This document shows, piece after piece, positions 1 to 22,900 of a stretch of DNA of 64,000 nt. Where the stretch lies: positions 248,001 to 312,000 of the forward strand of contig NIVC01000291.1 of the NCBI GenBank assembly GCA_002269645.1, in the 5' to 3' direction. Source of the DNA: Macrostomum lignano. Lineage: Eukaryota. The position numbers and the translations under genes were made by a program. The notes beneath the pieces are model-generated. The model was not told where the DNA came from, did not search any database, and saw nothing but the letters and a program-made list of their open reading frames with translations. How positions within the stretch are numbered: position 1 is the first letter of the stretch; each line of letters starts with the position of its first letter.

Positions 1-1301
1 ATTGTTCAAAGAAGTGATGTAGCTGGGCCTCCACTCTCCGAACGTCCTATGCAGCTGTTTTCCAGTCGGATGAGTGTATGATGCACTTCCTACAGGCACT
101 GGAGGATGTCGCCATTGCAGCATACAAGTGGAATGCGCGACATAGTCATTACCCTGCCATTCGCTCTGTCCGGGAGGAAGAGCAGTTCCAGACTGCCACT
201 CATTGCTGCTTGTGCGAGAAATTTCTTGATGATGATCGCCACTTCCATCATGATCATCTCAATGGCAAGTTTTTGGGTGCTGCATGCCCGTCATGTAATG
301 AGTCAGCTGTTCTCAAGCGCGACTTTCTTCCAATCTTTTTTCACAATTTCCGAGGTTATGATTCACACTTGTTGTGCAGCACGGTGATCGGTCGTATGAA
401 ACATTGGGAACTAAGTGTCATTGCACAAACAAAGGAGCGTTACATGACTCTAGAAGCCCGGATACCTATTGAGTCGGTCTATGATTCATCTAAAGATCGT
501 TTGGTGCCAAAATTCATGCGTCTGCGTTTTCTCGACTCTTTCCAATTCATGGCGTCGAGTCTTGCTCAATTAGTGCGCAATCTAACCCCGGCAGACTGTC
601 ACTACACGATGGAGATGCAGCAGCGATATCCACTCGCCTCCACCGAAGTCCTACTGCGAAAGGGGGTGTTCTCCTATTCCTATGTAACTAGTGATTCGAA
701 TTTAGATGAGCAACAGCTCCCATCCCAAGAAGCTTTTGCTAACGACTTGAACAATGAGCCTTGCAACGATCAGGACTATGCAACTGCCCAGCGTGCCTGG
801 AGAGAGTTTGGATGTAAGACACTGCGCGACTACATGCTTGCATACCTTGAAATGGACATTCGCCAGCTCGCCGATGTGTTCGAGGCGTTTCGTCGAATGA
901 ACCTCACTTCGGATGGGCTAGACCCAGTGCATTTTATAACCACGCCGGGAATGTCTTTCGAAGCAGCGCTTAAGTACTGTAAATTGGAGCTTGAATTGCT
1001 GCAATGTCCAGAGTTGTACAGCTTATTTGAAGAGGGTACTCGTGGTGGTATGACATTTGTCAACACACACAGAGCCAAAGCCAACCATCCCGGACTCGGT
1101 GAGCTGTATGATTCGCATCAACCTCAAACCTATCTTATCCCCATCGACGCCAACAACCTCTACGGACACGCCTTGTCCACCAAACTGCCATGGTGTGGGT
1201 TCCAAGTGCTTGACACTGTACCACCAAACAATGAGGTTGAGAGATGGATCAGGGATGAGGGGTTTAAAACTGTCGATAAAATAATATATAAAACAAACTA
1301 A
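1..1301 (+). pseudogene. Protein-primed family B DNA polymerase (pPolB), open at the 5' window edge, apparent frameshift near 60, C-terminally truncated
   Basis: EndoVII-like Zn insert (CCLC...HHDHLNGKFLGAACPSCN), exo motifs FFHNFRGYDSHLL and YLEMDIRQLADVFEAFR, LRFLDSFQFMASSL, RKGVFSYSY, motif A DANNLYG. Motifs B and C are absent; the frame runs into AT-rich DNA after ~1265. Confidence 0.9.
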
Positions 1302-1690: not shown

Positions 1691-1784
1691 TAAATCCGCA
1701 GAAACTGGTGGGGGTGGGCAGTTATTATTTTTTTCAAGCAGGTGTTTGGCATAAGAAAATGATAGGTACTAGAAATTTGGTAAA

Positions 1785-3003
1785 ATGAAAAAGAAAAAGG
1801 CAATTTCAAACCTTCTGCCAGGTATTTATTTTGACTGCAGTAGACCGGGCAGCTATGGCGGCTATCAGGCATTAAAACGAGAGTTGCACAAACAGCACGG
1901 ACCCAAGTTTAGTGTAGGGCAGGTATGTATATACGATATACTTCTAAACCAATGATTTTTTAGAAAATTCCAGCTTAGGTTTTTAGTTTTATCCACTAGC
2001 TAGCAATTTCCAGTTTTTACAATTAAAGGTAAAAACGTGGCTCCAAGACCAAGATGTCTACACACTGCATAGAGATAAACGCAAAAACTTTCGTCGAGCA
2101 CCGATTGTGGTGCGGGGCATGGATGACCAGTGGGAACTGGACCTGGTTGAAATGCTACCGTTTGCCAAGTACAATGGCGGCGTACGATATATTTTATGCT
2201 GCATTGATGTGCTCAGCAAGTTTGCCTGGGCTCAGCCGGTGCGCCGCAAGACAGCCGAGGAGGTTGCAGCCGGATTCGAAGCGATCCTAAATCGAGCTCA
2301 CCCTCGATGCCCACGAGCAGTTCGGACCGACCGTGGAAAAGAGTTTTGTAACACCCAGTTCCGAGCCCTCTGCGTAAACCACAAAATTCATGCATTCACA
2401 TCAAGTAGTGACCAGAAATGCGCAGTCATTGAGAGATGGAACCGCACACTGAAATCCCGAATGTGGCGGTACTTCCGTCACAAGTCAACATTAACCTGGA
2501 CCGATGTGCTTCAACCCTTAGCAAAGGCATACAACCAGAGTATTCATCGGAGTATTCAAAGCCGACCAGTTGATGTCGACAAGTCAAACGAGATGGAAAT
2601 TTGGCACCGGCTTTACGATGGGAAGCTTCCTGAGACTCGTGAAAAGGTCTCCAGACCAAAGTTCAAGGCAGGAATGATGGTGCGAATCTCTCTTCGCAAT
2701 CTGGCCAACCCATTCACCAAGGGCTACACAAGGGGATGGAGTGAGGAAGTATTTGAAGTCAAGTCCCTCCACCCCAAGCATTATCCATACATGTACACTC
2801 TGATCGATGCCCGAGGTGAAGAGTTGGAAGGCAAGTTTTACGAGCCGGAAATGCAGCAAGTGACAGGAAACAAGAAGCTGTGGATCATCGACAAGGTTCT
2901 CAACATTAAGAAGCTGAAGAGTGGAAAGATTCGGTATTTGGTTCAGTGGCGCGATTCAGAAAAACCCAGTTGGATTGACGAAAAAGACTTAAGAAAAATA
3001 TGA
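1785..3003 (+). CDS. Maverick rve (DDE) integrase with C-terminal chromodomain, 2 exons (1785-1922, 2029-3003), ~370 aa
   Basis: Exon 1 MKKKKAISNLLPGIYFDCSRPGSYGGYQALKRE matches the Maverick integrase N-terminus. CAG|GTATGT...TTAAAG|GTA gives a phase-0 join to VKTWLQDQDVYTLH. Catalytic WELDL, RTDRGKEF, IERWNRTLK; chromodomain WIIDKVL...YLVQW...SWI. Confidence 0.92.
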
Positions 3004-3782
3004 AAAGGCAAAGATTTCAGGTAATGTCCGGCCCCGATGATGACCCGGCCAACTTTACTGCTGAGCTGCTGCATCCTGTGCTGCTGGATTCTGCTTTGGA
3101 CTATGAGTTGGGTCTGCTTGGAATCAGTTTTATCAACTGCATCTACACGATCCCTCATCCATTGTCGCTATATTATCAGCTTGAGGGTTCAATGCAATGT
3201 GCTGAAATTCCAGCTGGGCGCTACAATGACTTGAATGAGCTGATTGATGCAGTAAATGCTTTACTGATTGTAAAAGATTTTGATGAGTCTGGAATTGGCG
3301 AAACACCTATAAATGTGCATCTAATTAAATTTACCCTTGATTCAGTTAGCCATCATGTATACTATCAAATGGCTGGGATCTGTGGGAGATTTATCTTTCC
3401 AGAAAACAGCCAGATGGGGAAAATCTTTGGTGCTGCGCAGACAACCTATAGCGAGCAGGCAGGATGCTTTGAACGACCTGGCATGAACCCGGCCTGGAAT
3501 ACGGATTTGCTGCTTGTTGAGTGCGATCAGATTAGCCCGCGCTGTATTGGAAATCAGTTTACTCCAGCACTGCAGACTTTGAATATTGGTGGTCTTTTGC
3601 AGGATCACCGGTCGGAACTCATCTATAAGAATAAGCTGTTCTTCCCAATAGCAGCAAACCACCGCTTAACACACATGCAAATACGGCTACGACCGATCAA
3701 CTGTATCGAATCTATCCGATTACTCTTTGGACCCACAGTCTTGACTTTTGAGCTGCGTGAGTCATGGACATTCGACAAGTGA
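3000..3782 (+). CDS. Maverick minor capsid protein (penton-like, PX)
   Basis: ANFTAELLHPVLLDSALDYELGLLGISF and LLVECDQISPRCIGNQFTPALQ resemble the conserved Maverick mCP blocks; position is between integrase and MCP. Confidence 0.8.
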   Translation: MKRQRFQVMSGPDDDPANFTAELLHPVLLDSALDYELGLLGISFINCIYTIPHPLSLYYQLEGSMQCAEIPAGRYNDLNELIDAVNALLIVKDFDESGIGETPINVHLIKFTLDSVSHHVYYQMAGICGRFIFPENSQMGKIFGAAQTTYSEQAGCFERPGMNPAWNTDLLLVECDQISPRCIGNQFTPALQTLNIGGLLQDHRSELIYKNKLFFPIAANHRLTHMQIRLRPINCIESIRLLFGPTVLTFELRESWTFDK

Positions 3783-4027
3783 CCGAGTTTTATCGAGGCA
3801 GTTGCTTCAAACTTCCTCATGGGCACGGATATCCCACATCGCTGCTATCTCGACTGCCCCCTGAGACTCATGAAAATGCAGTTCTCCTTTCCCGCATACC
3901 ACCTCCATCGCAGAAAAAACATAAGAAAACGCCAAAAATCAAACCAAAGAAGAGCAAGCCAGTGCCCACAAAAAAGCGCAAGATACCGTTAAAAACAGTC
4001 AACCGAGTGCTCGATTCACTCTCATAA
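3764..4027 (+). CDS. Small basic protein, possible DNA-packaging/core protein
   Basis: 87 aa with FYRG...HGHG motif and a Lys-rich tail (KKHKKTPKIKPKKSKPVPTKKRK); sits directly before MCP with a TAATG overlap. Confidence 0.5.
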   Translation: MDIRQVTEFYRGSCFKLPHGHGYPTSLLSRLPPETHENAVLLSRIPPPSQKKHKKTPKIKPKKSKPVPTKKRKIPLKTVNRVLDSLS

Positions 4028-5300
4028 TGTATCGGACAAATCCACGGCTCAATCTGTTTGAGCCAATGACGCATGAAATTGGAGTGGATAGGTCTCACTT
4101 CATGGACTTTCATCCCATCGGCAGTCTCACGACTCCTGATGCACCGATTGAATTCGACTGCCACGCCTCCTCTGAGGACTACACCGATCTGCACGCCACA
4201 GTGCTGCAAGTCACTTGCCGGATAACTCGTGTGATAAACAATGCAGAGCTGACTAATGAAGATGATGCCCATGTCGGACTATCGAATCTCCCGCTTGCCA
4301 GCCTGTTTCGTGATGTCACTGTAAAACTCAACCAGCGGGTTGTGAGTGGTGGGGACCAGCTCTACCCATATCGAGCAATGCTTCAAGTGCTGACCAGCAG
4401 CAATGCCAACCAGCTTCAAGAACTGGCGGCCGCAGGTTATTATCCAGATACCGCTGGAGAGAGTGACACCATTGGGGAGCAAAATCATGGATTCACAAAT
4501 CGTGCGAGATTGCATGAGGCTTCTGCTGTTGTGCAATATGCCGGCCCGTTGTTTTCAGACATTTTCTCAATCCGGCAGTATCTGCTAAACCAAATCAGCC
4601 TGCAGGTCAAATTGACCCGGCATTGCAGCGCTTTTTCGTTGATGGTACCCAATAATGGAGTTGAATACCGTGTTGAAGTCGACAATGCTATTCTGCTTTT
4701 GAGGCGTCTCCGAGTAAACCCAACAGTGGCTCTCGCACATGAACAGGGGCTCTCACAACGTAATGCTCTCTACCACTTTGATAGAAGAGAGCTTCAGACA
4801 TTCACATTTTCTGTTGGGACAAGAAACAAGAGTCTCGATTCAATCACGCATGGTCAGCTGCCAAAATTTGTGCTCCTTGGAATGGTCAGCCAGACTGCTT
4901 TCAATGGATCTCTGCACCACAACCCGTTTTGGTTCAAGCATTTGGATTGAATAGTTTAAGCCTGTTTGTCAATGGAGAGCCAATTACTGGGCAGCCCATA
5001 GAACCACAGCAGCAGCACTCATCCGAATTTTTGCAGTTTGCCCGCAGTCTCGGTGGAAAATATTGCATAAGCTTTGATGAATATCGAGATAGTGCCTATC
5101 TGCTTGCGTTTGACCTTAGTCCAAGTGGCGATGAAGTAGGCAGCTGGTTTGGTCATAGGCAGGGTCAACTACGACTGGATATTCGCTTTTCCAACGCTCT
5201 CGCACAGCCAGTCACACTCATCTGCTTGTGCGTGTATGTGCGTGTATGCATGGAAATCACTAAAGAGAGGGATGTGCTGCTGGATTATCGCAGAGCATGA
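4027..5300 (+). CDS. Maverick major capsid protein (double jelly-roll, PY), split by an apparent 1-nt frameshift at 4941-4943
   Basis: DFHPIGSL...PIEF, YTDLHAT, LSNLPLASLFRDVTVKLN, YPYRA, GQLPKFVLLGMV, NPFWFKH then (shifted frame) GLNSLSLFVNG, YLLAFDLSP, GQLRLDIRF, EITKERDVLLDY. Confidence 0.9.
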
Positions 5301-5769
5301 ATTCCGAAGAGTTGGAAGCGTTCATTTCTCGCTGCCCCACATCTGTGCGGGATGCCTATTGCGGAAATTTTACAGTTGGAACAGTGACACCATTTTTCGA
5401 TTCAACCTGCCGACCCTGCTGCTTCATTTTGTATGAGCCATGGAATGATGAGTGCGGTCACTGGATTGCTGGAGTAGTAACCAGTAAAGTGCATTGTGAA
5501 ATTTTCAACTCTTTGGGAGGCTTGAGTAAAAATATGAAGAGCTGGTTAAAGAAAACTAAACCACGCGGATGGTGCTACAATGGAATACGGTCCCTGTTCA
5601 GCCCAGTTCGTCAACTCTATGCGGCTGGTATTGCATTTTTTACTTGATCCATCGACTGCATAAGAGAATGTCATATAATGCCTTGTTCATCAAGGTTTTG
5701 CACCCGGCAGCTGTGGCTCAAAACGATGCAATCATACTCAGACTCAAAAATCAGTTGCAAGGTGTTTGA
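5297..5769 (+). CDS. Adenain-type cysteine (maturation) protease, apparent frameshift near 5567
   Basis: GHWIA (His), EIFNSLG (Asp position reads Asn), then in the shifted frame VQPSSSTLCGWYCIFY (Gln, Cys). Confidence 0.85.
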
Positions 5770-6385
5770 TTCCAGACTGCGGATGGGAGGCTGCATGATG
5801 GTTTCGGGCCCTTCTCGAGCGGGAAAATCAACATTCTGTTTGCGGTTGCTGTCCCAACGACTGCTTCTGTTCGACCAACCTCCCAAGCGGATGATTTGGT
5901 ATCACGGATGCCCGCAGCCGGAACTCCACGCGACTCTGCGGCGGCTAGGAGTGCAAGTATGTGAAGGATTATCGAATTTGGATCTGCAGCCCCATGACCT
6001 GATTGTGATTGACGATTTACTGGATGAAGCAGCTGCAAGTCGAGAGCTACGACATCTGTTCACCCGTGAGGCCCACCACAAGCCCTGCTTTGTCATTCTC
6101 ATCACGCAAAATCTATTTTTCAAAGGCAGAGAGTGGCGCACAATTAGCATAAATTGCACCTACATTGTGTTGTTCAACAACCCCAGAGACGCCTCTGCGG
6201 TCCAAGCTTTAAGTCAGCAATGCTTTCCCAAACGGCGCACTCTGCTAGTAGAACTGATGGATCGATTGGTGCGAGATGGAGATCAGCGCTATCTGCTGCT
6301 TGATTTTCACCCCGCTTCACCCCATGAACTGCGCCTGAGAGCCAATTTTCTCCCCGATGAGGCCCCGCAGCGAGTTTATCTATAA
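5724..6385 (+). CDS. Packaging ATPase (A32/FtsK-like); start codon uncertain
   Basis: Walker A GPSRAGKS, Walker B LIVIDD, FTREAHH, ITQNLF, RTISINCTYIVLFNNPRD. Confidence 0.92.
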
Positions 6386-6415
6386 GAATGGCTCAGTCTC
6401 TGCACTGAGTTAAAC

Positions 6416-6748
6416 ATGAATAAACACATTGCACTAATAACTGTCTTTTGTGAGGGCACTATATCCTTGCGTCGCTGCATACTTACCTATGCAAATAAAA
6501 GCACCATTTGCTTTTTGGTCGAGTGTATTATCAACTTACTAGCAGGAAAAGTTGGCTGTGAAGATAGCTTGAAGCGGAGACTCAGGCGATATCGAAATAC
6601 TCTCCGGCTTGTTGCACAAAGCAAAAGTGTGAAAGAGGCTCGGCGCAATCTCTCACACCCGCATATCCTTCGTTGTCTTCCTCTGATTCTCACCTGTATA
6701 AAAAGACATGTACAAGGAAATGATACTGGTACCCCGGTTGGAGTATGA
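6416..6748 (+). CDS. Maverick hypothetical protein (110 aa, basic, helical)
   Basis: ECIINLLAGKV...LKRRLRRYRNTLRLVA pattern resembles a small ORF common beside Maverick ATPases; compact gene packing. Confidence 0.65.
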   Translation: MNKHIALITVFCEGTISLRRCILTYANKSTICFLVECIINLLAGKVGCEDSLKRRLRRYRNTLRLVAQSKSVKEARRNLSHPHILRCLPLILTCIKRHVQGNDTGTPVGV

Positions 6749-7304
6749 GGCACTTGTGAATCAGAGGGGCATGGAGACAGTCTGTGAACCCGAGCTAGAG
6801 GCGGAAAAACAGTTGCGCAAGATTAGGGACGAGCGTTGCGTGCAGCAGCTGCAGGCAAGTGCGACCCAAGAACAGCCTCCAGTAATTCACAAAGAACCGC
6901 AGTGGAAGGAGGTTTTATATCTGACGGTGAATCAGAAATGGCATCATCGTCTGCAGGCATTGATTAGCTTCATAACCGTAAAGTGCAAGTCGATTAGCAT
7001 AGATGATACGTATGAAGTTTCTGTCAATGGTAAACCGTTGTACAACTCAAACATCGTGGACCTGCTGCATTTCATAGTTAAAGATACGTACTCTAAGTAC
7101 CTTCAGCCACCGAATGGGATTAATGAGTTTGTTACGTGTCTTCAAGAAAACCACGTGCCTCTGTCTGCAGTTGGTCTGAACACTACAAAATTGCTGGAAA
7201 AGCCTCGGGAAGAAAAGTCCAGTCCTAAAAAACCTCGACTGCAAGGCTATAAGAAGACTCAGTCTCAGAAAGGATACGGCAAGTGGATCAAGTGGCCAAG
7301 ATGA
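6708..7304 (+). CDS. Maverick hypothetical protein (198 aa)
   Basis: EMILVP N-terminus, VNGKPLYNSNIVDLL and PNGINEFVTCLQENHVP blocks resemble a conserved Maverick ORF; its stop overlaps the next ATG. Confidence 0.65.
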   Translation: MYKEMILVPRLEYEALVNQRGMETVCEPELEAEKQLRKIRDERCVQQLQASATQEQPPVIHKEPQWKEVLYLTVNQKWHHRLQALISFITVKCKSISIDDTYEVSVNGKPLYNSNIVDLLHFIVKDTYSKYLQPPNGINEFVTCLQENHVPLSAVGLNTTKLLEKPREEKSSPKKPRLQGYKKTQSQKGYGKWIKWPR

Positions 7305-7720
7305 TTGTCATTGATTTTGAAGGATTTCCGCACCTCTACAAAACAGAGGACTTTGTGATTAAGGAAATTGCATGGGTTGAGTTTGCATGCGGTCAAACGA
7401 CGGCTCATTACTATTGCTACCAGCCGCCGCACAGCTTTGAGCTCTTTGATCGAGGACAGCGACGAACCTGCTACTGGCTCACCAATAAGCGGCACGGTCT
7501 AGACTGGGACAGGAGTGGGTTCCGACCCTACTCTTGTCTCTGGAGCGATATCTCTCACTTGCAAGGCCCGATATTTAGCAAGGGGATGTCAAGTGCCAGT
7601 TCCTGTCGCGTCTGCTGCTGCAGCCTGTCTACGACCTCGCACACCTAGCCTTTCCGAGTGCCTCAAAGTACGTGCTACCCTGCGCCCTGGCCAAAGTGGC
7701 GCTGTACGCTGATTGGCTGC
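7301..7720 (+). CDS. DEDD/DnaQ-like nuclease-fold protein, apparent frameshift at 7582-7585; 3' end uncertain
   Basis: MIVIDFEGF (DxE motif), FVIKEIAW, WLTNKRHGLDW, IFSKG, then in the shifted frame DVKCQFL...VYDLAHLAFP...CALAKVALYADWL. Confidence 0.65.
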
Positions 7721-7747
7721 GGCCTCGCGGCTACGGGTCTATAAAAG
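7712..7747 (+). promoter_or_regulatory. Inverted CCAAT box (ATTGG 7712-7716) plus TATA box (TATAAAAG 7740-7747) upstream of the TBP-like gene
   Basis: Consensus motifs; the TATA box ends 46 nt before the ATG at 7793. Confidence 0.55.
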
Positions 7748-7792: not shown

Positions 7793-8392
7793 ATGGTCGC
7801 AACAATTCGCGTGACAAACATCGTGACAGGAGCCGACCTGGCGACCCGGGTGGGTCTGCCACAACTAGCGAATTTCCTGACTCTTCATCTGCCTCAGTAT
7901 CACACAATCCGCCATCGCCTGGTTCATCCTCGAACACTGGCAGTGGTGATGAAGAGCGGGCAGCATCGAGTAACCGCGCTGGTGTATCCCACCGGACAAG
8001 TGTCTGTCTGTGGAGCCAAAAGCCTGGAGGAAGCTCTCGCAGAGACGGAGAAGATTGTGAAGCTGTGTGCGGACTTCTTGCGATTGACCAGTCTGCCCCA
8101 GATTCGCATCAAGACTATTACCTCTGTGACGGCCTTTCCCGCGGGTCCGCATCCACTCCGGTTGGGGGAAGTCAAGTCTAAATGGCCGCATCGGGGCACC
8201 TATGAGCCGGAAATGTTTAACGGACTTGTGCTCGAGTTTACTGCCTCTGTAAAGTTGATTTTGTTTCATTCATATCGCTGTATAATAGCTGGTGCTCGCA
8301 GCGTGGTTGAGGCTCAGACTGCAGCTGATGCCCTCTCTCGCATTTTGCTACCAGATCAAGCATCCGAACCTACTTTGCTGGACTCTGACTGA
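7793..8392 (+). CDS. TATA-binding-protein (TBP)-like protein, 199 aa, encoded by the Maverick
   Basis: Aligns by eye along the whole two-repeat TBP core: TNIVTGADL~[34 protein letters not shown]~[40 protein letters not shown]~[29 protein letters not shown]~IVLLIFVSGKVVLTGAK. Intronless and uninterrupted. Confidence 0.9.
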   Translation: [199 protein letters not shown]

Positions 8393-8806: not shown

Positions 8807-9509
8807 TTAATTGACGAAATGACCAGTTGTCGCTTCATGCATTGCGCGTCGCTTCATTGGTGGCTGGTGGAATGAAGGCTGTTGGTTCTTCTCAGCTGTT
8901 GGTGGCTCTTCCAGAGTTTCGAATGTAAATCTCTTTCTAAATTCAGCCTGAACTGCTTGGAAGGCCCCCCAGTGGTCGTCCCAATCTGCCGACTGCCTGT
9001 CAGGTACTTGCATCAGTTGGTCAAATGTAAGCTTTGCTGCCCATGCTGCACACTCTTCAGATTCCGTAGGGTGGTATCCCATCCACCATGGATTGCCGAT
9101 CGGCGGCTCGACCGGAGGCTCTCGCTTGTCAATTTTGTCTAGGACCCATTGCTTTTGAGCCCAGACTTCGCGCCAAAGTGTAGTAGGAAGCGGTAAGGCA
9201 CCGGCGGTGCCTTAGGTGCACCGGCGGTCCGAGTACAGTTGGAAGGCGCCAGAGTGTGATTACGCCATTTTGCACAACCACTTGCCTGTTGCCGCCCAGA
9301 AGGCATTGCGCGTCGATACACTTTCTTGCAAACTCTTCCAGTCGTTCCTTCAGGCTGCCCAAGTGGCAAAACTGGTGGACGGTGAGCTCCATGCCAGGCA
9401 GACCTGGTCGATACTCTTCGGCAAATTTGTACCACTTTCTGAAGCTGATGCACTTCGAGTGCGACCTGACGCCGATTCGAAATCTGTTCGATAATGTCTT
9501 GAACTCCAT
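8807..9509 (-). CDS. PC4/Sub1-like ssDNA-binding protein (ORF 9129-9509), possibly continuous with ORF 8807-9082
   Basis: ISFRKWYKFAEEYRPGLPGMELTVHQFCHL resembles the PC4 pattern (DIRxYW...xPxxKGIxLxxxQWxxL); a second similar unit starts LGGNRQVVV. TATATAA on the minus strand at 9559-9565. Confidence 0.6.
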
Positions 9510-9588
9510 TTTGTTCACTGTCAAAAACTGTGAGCTTTCCTTCCGGCTGTGCGCGAGATTATATATGACTGGAGTTGGTAAGTAACAC

Positions 9589-9768
9589 CAGCTCCCGCTC
9601 AATAGCAATAACCAATCCGAACCCCGAATCCAACCCCACACAACAGCCCTCCCGCGGGAACTATTGGCAAATCAAGAGCCCTTCCGGGGACCACTCAGCC
9701 ATTTATAAATCAGCTCCCGTTCCATAGCAATAACCAATCTGAACCCCGAATCCAACCCCACACAACAG
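9589..9768. repeat. 58-bp direct repeat (9589-9646, 9711-9768) containing CCAAT boxes
   Basis: CAGCTCCCG...ATAGCAATAACCAATC(C/T)GAACCCCGAATCCAACCCCACACAACAG occurs twice. Confidence 0.85.
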
Positions 9769-9939
9769 GAGGTGGCGGGACCTTCTTGCGGCCCTCTGGC
9801 CACCAAGAAGTAGCGGTCTAGGTCTAACGACCTCCCGCTGTACCCGCCACAGCAAGAAAAGAGTAGAGCCAAAGCATTGAATGCGGGTTTTGCCTTGGCT
9901 AGAGCCTTAAAAGCGGTAAGTGAGACGGGGAATAAGATT

Positions 9940-10535
9940 GGGGTTTAGAAATTAGGAGGGGGCATTGGTTTTGGATAGGGTACTGGATAGAAGGACCGTG
10001 TTATATGGGATGGGGTGCACGATAGGAGGGGGCCTTGGTATGGGGTGCAGGATAGAAGGACCGTGTTATATGGGATGGGGTGCAGGATAAGAGGGAGCCT
10101 TGGTTTGGGATGGGGTGCAGGATAGAAGCAGGCCTTGGTATGGGATGTACGGGGTGTAGGACACGAGGGGGCCTTGGTTATGAGATGGGGTGCAGGACAG
10201 GAGGGGCCTTGGTTTGGGAAGGGGTGCAGGATAGGAGGAGGCCTTGGTATGGGATGTACGGGGTGTAGGACACGAGGAGGCCTTGGTATGAGATGGGGTG
10301 CAGGACAGGAGGGGCCTTGGTTTGTGATGGGGTGCAGGATAGGAGGGGGCCCGGTTTGGGGGGCCCGGTTTGGGTCGGGGGTGGGTGCGTGGCGGCGTTG
10401 GGTCGGGGGTGGGTGCGGCGGTGGTGGGTCTGGGGTCGGGGGTGGACCTCTTTGGGGGGGCCCTCTCGCCTGATTGGCCGGGTGCCCCGGCCAATCCGGT
10501 GCGATGGCGGTGGAGGGTACCACTTTCCTACTACT
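9940..10535. repeat. Putative right terminal inverted repeat region with internal G-rich tandem repeats
   Basis: Repeated GATGGGGTGCAGGA(T/C)AG...CCTTGGT units ending in ACTACT. The left TIR is not in the window, so the inner boundary is approximate. Confidence 0.6.
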
Positions 10536-10546
10536 GTGGGTGGTAA

Positions 10547-18855: not shown

Positions 18856-19620
18856 TGTTATATATCGCGAAGCCGAGAGGGTTATATCTTCTATAGCGCG
18901 CGGTCTGATGAAAATAAAGCTCAGAGGGCGTGGCCGTCTCTCTAGGCCGTCAACGTGTATTTATACCATAGACAGTAATATTCATACGAGTATAGCCCAA
19001 GCTTCAGTGTCACACACATGCATATGCACACTTATACACAACACCTCCCCCTTCAGTTACAATGCGACTTCTTGTCAGTCAATCGTAAGAAATTTTGCGG
19101 GGGTCAATCTGAAGCCTGTTGGGTGGCCGACGGTTTCTCGTAGGCCACGGTCTTGATCGTCCTTCTGGCCCTCTGGCTCCATTCGTACCTTGCGAGTCCG
19201 CAGGGCCAGTATTGGGCTGGTAGCGAGCTTCTGCCGCATGTGCTGGAAACCTTCTTCGTAGGAACTTTCGGTTTCTCCGAAGAACCCGGCCGCTGGTCAG
19301 CTTGACTAGAAAGTCGTTGTTTTTCATTAGCTCGACCACCACGCCGTACTTGTCCCATCGCTTGGTCTGGGCGTCCTGCACTGCAACTCTGTCTCGCACT
19401 CGCAAGGCTGGGAGTTGGTGAGCTGCTCTATTGTAGTACACCTCCATCCTCTCCCTCTTCTCCGCTGCCCTGTTGTCCACCTCATCTGCTGCTGCTTGCC
19501 ATTCCTTGGCGAACGCTCTCCGGTGAACTGGCAGGGTATCGCGAACCTCGTGACCGAACACCATGTGTGCTGGTGACCTGCCGTCGTATCGCGGAGTGTT
19601 GCAGTACATCAGTATCCCCT

Positions 19621-19960
19621 CATGGATGAATGAATAGAATGGATTGCTATTCTGGCTCTGACTATTTTCGTTTTTGACTCTTTTGCATCCGGTTCCCCCC
19701 CGTGCCTTTTCATTGGTTGATGATTGCCATAGACAATTGTCAGTTACTTGCAGAGAATGTCGAGCGCTCGTAGGTCTTCCCCCTTTATTTCAAAACACGA
19801 GCGAAAGCGCTTGTGCATCGAAAGAAAGGGGCGAAGGCCGAAAATTGTCTATGGCAATCATCAACCAATGAAAAGGCACGGGGGGGAACCAGATGCAAAA
19901 GAGTCAAAAACGAAAATAGCCAGAGCCAGAATAGCAATCCATTCTATTCATTCATCCATG
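19621..19960. mobile_element. 340-bp foldback MITE with ~118-bp TIRs and 8-bp TSD, inserted in the Gypsy integrase
   Basis: TIR starts CATGGATGAATGAATAGAATGG; TSD TATCCCCT at 19613-19620 and 19961-19968. Confidence 0.92.
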
Positions 19961-22900
19961 TATCCCCTGGCAGAGATCGTCTCAGTTCGGCTCTCTGGCT
20001 CCGTGATTCCCATTTCCACGCACCAGCTTTTTCATTGCCTTGACGGCTGCCTCCGCTCGCCCATTGCTCTGAGCGTACGTGGGGGATGATGTCCTCTGCT
20101 CCACATTCCAACGACACAGGAATCCCAGAAATGGCTTGGCTGTGAATTGCGGTCCATTGTCTGACCATAACGCCTCCGGCGCGCCCTTCTCACAGAAACG
20201 TCTTCGCAGCACGTTGATCACCTTGTACGTTGAGGCATCAGTTCCGAAGTAGTCTAGTGTTGGCCAACCAGACTTTCCGTCCACAGTCACCAGGAACATC
20301 TTCCCAGCGAATTGAAACAAGTCGGCATGGAATTCTTGAAAGACGCGTTCCGATTCCTTTCTCACAACCATCGGCTCCTTTACTTGACTAGGCAAAGTCT
20401 CTTGGCACGGGATGCACTTCCTGGCTGACATTTCTATATCGTTGTCGATTCCCGGCCAGTAGAAAATCATTCTGGCTCTCTCTTTCATCTTAACGATTCC
20501 CTGATGCATCTTGAGCATCCTATTCATGAATTCTGCTCGCATCTCCTTGGGAATGAGCAATCGCCTTCCTACAACGATCAAGTCATGCTCGACTGCTAGT
20601 TTGTCGTGGATATTCCAAAATTGTCTTAGATGGACCGGTACGTTTCCCTTCTCGTTAGGGAATCCTTGCTGAACCAATCGCTTCAGCTCCTGGTACTCCT
20701 GGTCTCTTCTGGCAATCCGCGTCAACTCTGCTTCAGAAGCTTGAATCTCATCGATAGCCATGATGATATTGCTCTCGTGCTCCTCCGCAAGTTCTTCGTC
20801 CGTGGTTGCCGGCTCTACCGGGGCTCTTGACAAAGCATCGGCGGCCTTGTGGTCACTGCTTTCACCCATTGAGCCGTGTACTGGAAGCAATCCAGTTTCT
20901 GTCGCAACCTCTGAAGCCTCGGATTCTCAATCTGATCCAAGGTGTATCTATTTAAAATCGGCTCCAACGGCTTGTGGTCGATGATTATCTCAAAATTCTG
21001 CAGTCCTTCGAGGAACAGACGACATTTCTTTGCCGCCCATACGACTGCCAACAGCTCCAGTTCAATCATGGCGTATCGCCTCTCTGTCTCCGAAATGAAC
21101 CGCGAGCCTGCTTGAACCACTTTCCAAATGCCATTGTCTTGCTTTTGCTTGAGCACGAATCCAAGCCCCTTCAGTCGAGACGCATCCGTGTGCAGTGCTG
21201 TCTGCCTCGTATGGTCATAGTAGGCCATTGTAGGAACATTGCTTAGTTCTTTCCGCATGCTGTCAAATGCTTTGTCGTGTTCGCAGCTCCACATGAACTC
21301 ATTCCTCGGTTTCAACAACTCTCTCAACGGCTCACCGAGGGAAGCTATCTTGTCACTACAGAACCCAATCTGATTCACTAGTCCGAAGAACGCTCTGAGG
21401 TCGGTCAGATTTTCTGGCTTCGGGAAGTCTCGAATCGCCTTCACTATGGCAGGGTCTATAGCGTATCCTTTCGAGTCCAACTGGAATCCGGCAAATGTCA
21501 CACTGGGCTGAGCAAACACAAACTTCTCTGGATTCAGGCTGATGCCGCGGTCCCTGCATCGCTGCAGAAACTCACGAACAGCACGGCGATGCTCGTCAAA
21601 GTCGTCGTGAGCCAACAGTACGTCGTCCACAATATGATAGGTGCTCTTCAGTCCCTCTAGCACTTCATCCACACGCCTATTGTAATGTTCCGATATGGAC
21701 GACAGTCCAAAGGGGGCACGTAGGAACTTGTACCGTCCGAATGGTGTGATGAAAGTTGTCAATATTTGTGACGCGTCATCCAGTGGCACTTGGTGGTATC
21801 CTTTCGTGGCGTCAACGGTTGTGAAGAACCTGGCGCCCTTGTGTACACTTGACACAACTTCAAATGGCGTTTGGCTGACGTAGCGCTCTCGGATGGCGTA
21901 TTTGTTTAAGCACCGTAGGTCGTCGCACATTCTTATCTTGCTCTGGCCTTTCTTTGGCTGCACGGTGATCGGGGCACACCATTCCGTAGGCTCTGTGACC
22001 TTTGCTATGATTCCATCTCGCTCGAGATCCTCCAGTTCCTTCTTGAGCTTTAACTTGAGCGGTTCCGCAATTCTTCTCGGGGTCGAAATGGCAAACGGCT
22101 TTGCGTCCGCTGATAGTTTAATTCTGAACATCTCACCAGCCATTCTGCCAACTTTTCCGGTGAACACGTCCGAAAACTCTTTTTTTAGGTCCTCCTCTGT
22201 GCCAGCGTTGGTATCGTGCTGATTCATGCTTGCCACGATTTGCTTTGGAAAGTTTCTTAGAATGATACCCAGATCACGACACGCTTCTCTTGATAGAATC
22301 ATGGTGGATATTCCGCTGAGGACGTGAAATGTACGCTGCAGCTCAGTCTTACCCATGGATACTTGCAGCTGAATCGAGCCCTTGGCTTTCAATAGCCGGC
22401 CGTCGACTGCCTTGGGTTTGATGACTGACGGATGTAGGTTTTCATATCTGCTCCCACTATAGGCAGCAAGCTCTCAGGGATGGCATCTATGAACGCGCCT
22501 GTGTCTGGTAAGGCGGCGATGGTCTTTGTTCCGTCAGGGGTGCGAATTTTTACCTGCACACAGCATGCTGAGGTCCCTTGTGCGCCAGTTGCGGCGAAGA
22601 TTGAGTGGACTCTCTCGCCCTGCTTGGCTCTGTTGAACAGGCCTTCCTGCCTGTCGATTCTCCGCTGCTCCAGTTCGCTTGGCCTTCCGGTAGCTTGACG
22701 CGTGTCGCACAGCGGAAACGGTCTGTGTCTCGCCCTTCATTATGGCGCAGTTTTTCCTCGAACTCTCCATCGACTCGCAAATGGTCTTTGCTCTCTCCAG
22801 CGTTAGCTCACTGCCTTCCTCTAGCAACTTCTCTACAGTGCTGGGGTCGCGCAGTCCCATGACAATTCAATTCCTAAAGCTGCGTACAGTAGCATCTTTA

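Follow-up and report, generated by a model that had tools for sequence, protein, structure and literature searches.

A TATA-binding protein gene in a clade of flatworm Mavericks and a candidate TAAGAA promoter box

Introduction

Mavericks, Polintons and adintoviruses are described as carrying AGT/ACT-ended TIRs, a 6-bp TSD, and pPolB, integrase, ATPase, protease and putative capsid genes (available part of Starrett, 2021; PMC8502044), and the flatworm element analyzed here has the same features. Maverick particles have not been observed, according to the abstract of a vertebrate survey (PMC8097293). A TATA-binding protein (TBP) has already been placed on a map of viruses with an adintovirus-like PolB, where the legend of Fig. 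5 lists it (Starrett, 2021; PMC8502044); the statement in the initial annotation that no Maverick TBP had been described is therefore not supported in the strict sense. The accessible text of that article holds no analysis of the TBP alongside the legend entry. Compared with the adintovirus map, as far as the article could be consulted (PMC8502044), the gene described here is fixed and selected in a multi-copy animal clade, and is accompanied by a PC4-like gene and a promoter-like box.

Two groups of viral TBPs are known from larger viruses. ORF24 of KSHV, one of the beta/gammaherpesvirus vTBPs, is, like the Maverick protein, a viral protein of TBP fold, and is believed to recognize a variant TATA element at late genes and to employ host Pol II (PMC12529657, in the part available). 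Both proteins are polar at the equivalents of V122, T124 and V161 (Table 1 of PMC12529657); ORF24 has Asn at the first two and reads TATT, whereas the candidate Maverick box is xxTAAGAA. In the same portion of that article, ORF24 keeps all four Phe without the acidic TFIIB residues, whereas the Maverick TBP changes two Phe and keeps the loop; ORF24 also binds Pol II via extra domains and needs five more viral factors, whereas the Maverick protein is a bare core of 190-200 aa. The window's protein, a 199-aa core with an intact loop, thus does not have the architecture of the herpesvirus vTBPs (ORF24/BcRF1/UL87), and the likeness concerns only how the proteins may work. The TBPs of large DNA viruses are likewise two-lobed with a diverged N-lobe, and are mostly paired with a viral TFIIB, their acidic loop being ~40% conserved (Ravarani, 2020; PMC7221094, available part); in contrast, the Maverick loop is invariant and no viral TFIIB was found. 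Structural matches of the Maverick TBP among viral models have 10-18% identity in the top rows.

Polintons have 0 occurrences in Ravarani (2020; PMC7221094), and TBP, TATA and PC4 are unmentioned in the Polinton papers checked by term look-up. A literature search found no study of a Polinton-like-virus TBP, a flatworm Maverick TBP or a Maverick promoter box; subscription papers, Repbase and supplements may hold one. New here are the sense-strand xxTAAGAA box before core genes of the TBP-bearing elements and the PC4-like gene that travels with the TBP.

The Maverick element and its TBP gene

The window is a stretch of 64,000 nucleotides from Macrostomum lignano. The element is 12,862 bp long, runs from L031:4674, upstream of the window, to window position 10535, and has the termini AGTAGT and ACTACT. 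Its long TIRs are AG...CT-ended, as in Mavericks; the left one starts at L031:4674, and the right one (9523..10535, ~1 kb, ending in ACTACT) is 87% identical to it over 1066 columns. The 6-bp TSD GTGGGT follows at 10536..10541 (plus strand), and the same hexamer precedes the left end. The insertion site is an intron of a host ABC-transporter gene. A database gene model, P0008, joins Maverick pieces, part of the TBP included, to ABC-transporter exons of the host; this fused model, an annotation artefact, possibly hid the TBP gene.

The gene order is PolB, integrase, putative minor capsid, small basic ORF, putative major capsid, protease, ATPase, two conserved ORFs, nuclease-like ORF, TBP and a convergent PC4-like gene, which is missing from the initial annotation; all lie on the plus strand except this last. 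The protein-primed PolB starts upstream at L031:5786 and ends early in this copy (1..1301; PF03175, E 9.7e-7, over cut-off). The retroviral-type integrase (1785..3003; rve, E 1.7e-13), with a weak chromodomain match, has its long ORF at 2119-3003, and its N-terminal part lies upstream behind a possible intron. A GT...AG-bounded stretch of ~90-105 nt near 1.92-2.03 kb splits this N-terminus (1785-2119), and a 338-aa integrase open frame is common to 11 of 12 copies of the window's family (family A), among the best listed. The stretch is possibly a spliceosomal intron; if so, transcription by host Pol II would be indicated.

The putative minor capsid protein (3000..3782) and the putative major capsid protein (4027..4950, interrupted in this copy and 427 aa in one copy of a second family, B) are separated by a small basic ORF, an open frame at 3764-4027. 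Neither capsid candidate has a Pfam match, and their assignment as putative double and single jelly-roll proteins is based on position and cross-family likeness. The adenovirus-type cysteine protease (5297..5647), short in this copy, matches C48 with E 0.015, and its family B homolog matches Peptidase_C5 over cut-off (E 7.2e-5); the packaging-type ATPase (5678..6385, homology-supported start 5726) matches AAA_22 below cut-off (E 8e-5). The TIRs, 6-bp TSD, PolB and integrase, together with an ATPase below cut-off and a protease over it in the family B homolog, make this element a Maverick. Two ORFs of 110 aa and 198 aa (6416..7304), conserved among Mavericks by cross-family comparison, are those we take to be PW-like and PZ-like; the family C homolog of the 110-aa ORF matches Adeno_PX. 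The nuclease-like ORF (7301..7648) is 115 aa long in this copy, whereas 9 of the 30 that were read have 293 aa, with a DEDD-type start motif seen by eye and no Pfam match over cut-off. The PC4-like gene (coactivator p15 / ssDNA-binding fold; 9129..9509, minus strand) is shortened in this copy (Pfam E 0.0044), and its family B homolog scores over cut-off (E 5.5e-8). This copy of the element is damaged; its PolB stops prematurely, and other copies have longer capsid, protease, nuclease-like and PC4-like ORFs. The nuclease frame and the TBP gene overlap in most copies of family A, and the two are fused as a single frame of 354-363 aa in one family B gene model and at 4 of 30 family A loci.

The TBP itself is encoded at 7793..8392 on the plus strand by a 199-aa ORF with no stop and no intron, as the initial annotation had it. 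Pfam recognizes TBP as two stretches within the ORF (E 5.7e-18; 65 bits, the cut-off being 22.9), and a PDB sequence search with the protein gave TBPs as 35 of 36 matches. An AlphaFold2 model (pLDDT 86, pTM 0.75, from a 19-row alignment) has a TBP as its Foldseek top match (E 9e-13), and VIA-align superposes it on human TBP with Z 17.7 and an rmsd of 2.8 A over 172 residues, against Z 9.6 only for the best non-TBP fold. The presence of both TBP repeats was thus borne out by HMM and structure prediction alike, and the protein has the saddle fold of a two-repeat TBP. The ORF does lie on the TIR side of the nuclease gene; however, it does not adjoin the TIR, since the convergent PC4-like gene (9129-9509) stands between them.

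Families, copies and selection

A TBP search of the genome scored 197 candidates, and removal of 9 second fragments of the same locus from the best 150 matches left 141 places. Among these matches listed, 37 belong to family A (at least 66% identity) and 104 to family B (34-40%). A Maverick ATPase or integrase lies upstream on the same strand in at least 110 of the 141 places (A, at least 26 of 37; B, at least 84 of 104). Of the 11 family A places without such a match among those listed, 8 have a PC4-like match within 2 kb, and 5 of the 20 family B places sit within 2.3 kb of a contig start. The gene is therefore not a one-off host insertion; it is a fixed gene of one Maverick clade, present in two families whose TBPs are about 33% identical. 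In family B the central block is the same as in A, the genes for PolB and the PC4-like protein have traded ends, and the PC4-like gene accompanies the TBP in both families. The block order from integrase to TBP is constant between A and B, and each TIR drives one gene inward.

Family C is a third Maverick family with a different gene order. Among the TBP matches listed, 0 of its 62 ATPase rows have a TBP within 20 kb, and neither 18 kb of one family C element nor 5.5 kb of another gave a match to a viral-TBP profile. One family C Maverick (contig C1704) encodes a 1426-aa PolB and a dUTPase-like ORF, the latter from a motif seen by eye, and carries a second, inverted capsid-integrase block directly after the protease. 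Several Maverick subfamilies contain long runs of copies with identical scores, which suggests recent activity or assembly of homeologous copies.

The dN/dS ratio among copies gave purifying selection in family B and only a weak signal in family A. For 15 family B ORFs it was 0.30 (69 pairs with dS 0.3-0.8) and 0.21 (29 pairs with dS >0.8); for 18 close family A ORFs it was 0.48-0.80, values that may include decay after insertion. Within the family B TBP, dS of the N-half was 0.32 vs 1.58 for the C-half (80 of 105 pairs measurable), a difference that suggests recombination or conversion homogenizing the N-lobe.

Relatives in ENA, Logan and JGI data have TBPs with 47-76% identity to those of A or B, on contigs of at most 3 kb, and these sequences show that the clade reaches beyond the M. 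lignano genome. Database gene models of Macrostomum lignano include close homologs, one of them 99% identical to the family B TBP.

Residue pattern of the viral TBP

Residues were given yeast numbers via the canonical host TBP (offset 23), and the DNA-facing positions are those in Table 1 of PMC12529657. The 23 viral rows compared are 15 family B copies, the window's protein and 7 outside relatives. N69, V71, T112, L114, E186, P187, E188, F190 and F207 are invariant in all 23, and seven positions are replaced identically in all 23 (F99P, F116Y, T73G, T124C, Q158K, N159T, V208H). V122 is Ser in 20 and Thr in 3, and V161T occurs in 22 of 23; the window's protein has V122S and V161T. The canonical set of four Phe and an Asn pair is thus reduced to F190, F207 and N69, with F99P, F116Y and N159T in every row. 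This agrees with the asymmetry noted in the initial annotation, in which the C-lobe Phe pair is kept and the N-lobe pair is changed, and the motifs EMFNG, ILFHS, LVYPTG and KTIT were all found in the protein. The first Phe of repeat 1 is indeed altered, but in all 23 viral rows the 24-row alignment sets the Pro of H-P-R / W-P-R against it; a smaller alignment places Leu at this site (yeast F99) in family A, so that the register is partly loose and Phe is absent either way. V203K, present in one alignment and a gap in another, was set aside as unreliable.

Because proteins only one-third identical carry the same replacements, the DNA face was re-tuned and has been held since. As read from the alignments, it is a conserved change, not decay. 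The host TBP, 23-27% identical to the viral TBPs, has every canonical DNA-face residue, whereas the host TRF2/TLF changes another set (F99, F116, F190). The fold and the E-P-E loop are common to all three.

The acidic E-P-E loop of the C-lobe, which contacts TFIIB/Brf, is intact in 23 of 23 viral rows. The basic N-lobe patch is a binding surface for TFIIA, Mot1, TAF1 and Brf1 (PMC7221094, available part). Family A, as seen in the window's protein, has lost it, with L/E/K/D at yeast positions 133/137/138/145, whereas family B retains the basic helix, R/K standing at 137, 138 and 145 in 18-21 of the 23 rows; the patch is therefore not the shared function. No TFIIB was found by Pfam among the ORFs of the element, from which a very diverged one could escape. 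A genome search with the TFIIB family (PF00382; 23 candidates scored) gave 15 matches on 7 contigs, none of which carries a listed viral TBP, so that a TBP-TFIIB pair of the kind known in large DNA viruses was not found. When the viral TBP was modelled without DNA together with a partial host TFIIB core, which comprised a single exon and lacked the first helices, the complex scored 0.01, a value given no weight here.

TATA boxes and the TAAGAA box

Two kinds of candidate promoter element precede the genes of this Maverick. The first is the consensus TATA box. TATAAAAG stands at 7740..7747 (plus strand), 53 bp before the TBP start, where the initial annotation had placed a TATA motif. The TATATAA that it also reported, at 9559-9565, exists, but it is on the minus strand within the right TIR and faces not the TBP but the PC4-like gene, whose start is 56 bp away. 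A mirror TATATAA in the left TIR lies ~98 bp before PolB, and the consensus TATATAA precedes the TIR-driven genes in A and B1.

The second is an octamer with the core TAAGAA, always on the plus strand at the sites in the window. It occurs as CATAAGAA at 1750..1757, 35 bp before the likely integrase start at 1785; as ATTAAGAA (2905) and CTTAAGAA (2988) before the putative minor capsid gene, within 2905..2995; as TATAAGAA at 3624..3631, 140 bp before the small basic ORF (3764-4027), with TAAGAA 148-149 bp before this ORF in all three B elements; and as CATAAGAA at 3920..3927, 107 bp before the putative major capsid gene, the distance being 104 and 110 bp in two B elements. A near-box, CATAAGAG, lies at 5659..5666, 67 bp before the ATPase start at 5726, and TATAAGAA recurs at 6381..6388, 35 bp before the PW-like ORF, and at 7248..7255, 53 bp before the nuclease-like ORF. 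The family B TBP gene has CTTAAGAA ~80 bp upstream and no consensus TATA within 160 bp. Before the B integrase the octamer is retained between wholly different flanks.

YWTAAGAA occurs 5/0, 8/0, 6/0 and 7/1 times (sense/antisense) in the cores of A, B1, B2 and B3, against an expectation of 0.36-0.60; in family C there were 0 in two 5.5-kb cores and one in 12.7 kb of flanking element DNA. The genome-wide frequency of CTTAAGAA is about one per 68 kb on each strand. Of 36 starts in the TBP-bearing elements, 22 have TAAGAA at a distance of 30-110 bp upstream (4/9, 7/10, 6/9 and 5/8 in A, B1, B2 and B3) vs 0 of 14 in family C (0/7 in each of two elements), with a random rate of 0.08-0.10 and P from 3e-3 to 1e-5. 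In this count one B3 start was left out as unclear, three coordinates are a few bases off the ATG, and the family A integrase is outside the count. The box was spotted by eye in A and B1 and the 30-110 bp window was chosen afterwards; B2 and B3 were held out but are related to B1, and the contrast of A/B with C sets one clade against one.

The median distance from box to ATG is 49 bp; 18 of the 22 boxes lie at 35-80 bp and none of those counted at <35, a spacing that fits a -30 element. Two other family A boxes are only 11-12 bp from an ATG. The protease and PZ-like genes have a box at 0 of 8 starts, and may be read from the transcript of the upstream gene. The sequences downstream of the 22 boxes share no conspicuous initiator motif. 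The stretch is present in 20 of 24 sequencing runs, none of them recorded as RNA; in four runs guessed to be RNA, genes and spacers were covered alike and no splice joint was seen, which speaks neither for nor against expression.

Placed in register, xxTAAGAA corresponds, as a sequence, to a TATA element whose position 6 is G and whose positions 1-2 are loose. The position-3 pocket of TBP has been named (PMC13566119, available part), and by the two-fold symmetry of TBP the position-6 pocket would consist of V71, L114, V122 and T124; within it V122 (S/T) and T124 (C) are the changed residues. However, ordinary TBP tolerates G at position 6, and CTTAAGAA and TATAAGAA satisfy the structural rule for ordinary TBP binding given in the same source (PMC13566119, available part), so the box alone does not require a viral TBP.

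Proposed mechanism and alternatives

We judge it slightly better than an even chance that the viral TBP is a promoter-selectivity factor that reads xxTAAGAA and recruits host TFIIB and Pol II, working like the herpesvirus vTBP. Host TBP would read the consensus TATA boxes of the two TIRs, one driving PolB and the opposite one the PC4-like gene; in family A it would also read TATAAAAG before the TBP gene. The viral TBP, with its polar, reshaped DNA face, would then bind xxTAAGAA before the integrase, capsid, ATPase and neighboring genes, and its intact acidic C-lobe loop would recruit host TFIIB, and hence host Pol II, which is proposed because the element has no TFIIB or polymerase of its own to transcribe with. 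The PC4-like protein may help as a coactivator or ssDNA binder. One or two viral proteins would in this way operate an early-to-late switch.

Several observations argue for the selectivity factor. The gene is fixed in two families with TBPs only ~33% identical, with a dN/dS of 0.2-0.3 in family B; the DNA-face changes are shared, and the sense-strand box precedes genes of the same elements and is absent in family C; no TFIIB match lies on the contigs with a listed viral TBP; and the TATT-reading ORF24 is also polar at the V122, T124 and V161 equivalents (PMC12529657, available part). On the other hand, CTTAAGAA and TATAAGAA fit the rule for ordinary TBP, the motif and its distance window were picked post hoc with one clade against one, the protease and PZ-like starts are boxless (0/8), two A boxes are only 11-12 bp from an ATG, and family A has a dN/dS of 0.48-0.80. 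A clean early/late split is also opposed by the family B TBP gene, which carries CTTAAGAA and not a consensus TATA. Yeast mutants are a further point against the selectivity factor, as changes at N159 and V161 could weaken DNA binding; both positions are changed here. DNA binding, specificity, TFIIB recruitment and timing are accordingly put forward here as predictions from the sequences. The initial annotation had proposed that host Pol II or Pol III is redirected to viral promoters; the Pol II part gains from the candidate box and the intact TFIIB loop, and the Pol III part found no specific support.

It is unlikely, although the octamers fit the ordinary-TBP structural rule, that host TBP reads the boxes as weak versions of TATA and that the viral TBP adds supply or evades TAF1, Mot1 and NC2 with unchanged preference. 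Many family A boxes are TATAAGAA, one base off consensus, and family A is without the N-lobe basic patch that regulators bind, both of which would suit such a supplement. However, eight DNA-face positions are changed alike in 22-23 of 23 rows, which is needless for plain redundancy, and 16 of the 22 boxes begin with C, away from consensus.

A decoy or host shut-off factor, a TBP poor in DNA binding that soaks up TFIIB, TFIIA, Brf1 or Mot1, seems quite improbable. Changes in two of four Phe and one of two Asn, a TFIIB loop intact in 23 of 23 rows and the basic helix retained in family B are in keeping with it. The decoy for TFIIA/TFIIB/NC2 suggested by the initial annotation is nevertheless weakened, since the basic N-lobe patch is lost in the window's family and the DNA face is invariant, not variable or decayed; a decoy also leaves the box, and its absence from family C, unexplained.

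Slightly less probable still is a replication factor, in which the TBP would bend the terminal origin for the protein-primed PolB start and the PC4-like protein would be the single-strand binder. In adenovirus, origin-bending factors act in replication initiation. The PC4-like gene accompanies the TBP in both families, TATATAA is present in both TIRs, and 'SSDBP' is labelled in two adintovirus maps (Fig. S2 of Starrett, 2021; PMC8502044, available part), but the invariant TFIIB loop is needless for replication and the enriched box precedes genes and is not at the termini. The TAAG core recalls another class of promoter, that of the baculovirus-type late genes, which contains TAAG. It is very unlikely, however, that the core is a late promoter for the RNA polymerase of a helper large DNA virus, in the style of virophages, with the TBP serving that or another purpose: TAAG does lie within the invariant core, and the 11-12 bp between two family A boxes and an ATG are in keeping with initiation within the motif, but most boxes are 35-80 bp from the ATG, and host Pol II is favored by the family A integrase gene, given its possible spliceosomal intron. 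A captured host TBP retrocopy riding as a passenger with no role for the element is scarcely credible, for although family A dN/dS is near 0.5-0.8 at shallow depth and family C Mavericks persist with no TBP seen, it is largely refuted by selection and synteny (dN/dS of 0.2-0.3 in family B, the same gene position in families 33% identical, and a viral clade monophyletic at 100/99 with environmental relatives).

The selectivity factor and its matching box together suggest a small virus that steers the host transcription machinery to its own promoters. The fuller proposition, that an integrating animal virus of ~13-15 kb runs its own late program through just one captured and re-tuned TBP, which recognizes xxTAAGAA and docks to host TFIIB, we put somewhat below an even chance. 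If true, it would be a third solution beside the multi-protein vTBP complex of herpesviruses and the TBP-TFIIB pair of giant viruses, and the single-TBP solution may have arisen repeatedly in Polintons. It would also provide a natural altered-specificity TBP compatible with host TFIIB, useful for understanding TATA recognition. A TBP clade with a defined box offers a direct handle on the activation of Maverick capsid genes in a laboratory flatworm: the protein is named, the candidate target is 8 bp long and the host partner is predicted.

Origin and wider relatives

In the careful tree (32 rows) the 10 viral TBP rows, environmental relatives included, form one clade (100/99) on a long branch. 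Neither this tree nor the quick one (64 rows) places that branch; viral TBP, host TBP and TRF2/TLF are separate clades in a polytomy, and as sister to the viral TBP the AU test rejected neither host TBP (p-AU 0.48) nor TRF2 (p-AU 0.71). A scan of viral contigs for outside homologs of the viral TBP gave none, as did phage records, and an Atlas search with it returned generic TBP clusters only. A metagenome scan gave 32 TBP loci with 23-33% identity, none with a Maverick gene match; the seven loci inspected resemble archaeal, eukaryotic or giant-virus TBPs.

The window has two further features. Matches to RT, RNase H and integrase mark the remnant of a gypsy-type retrotransposon at 19079-22356 (minus strand), and the host introns at 10000-64000 are dense in minisatellites, with units of 11-102 bp in 49 repeat families.
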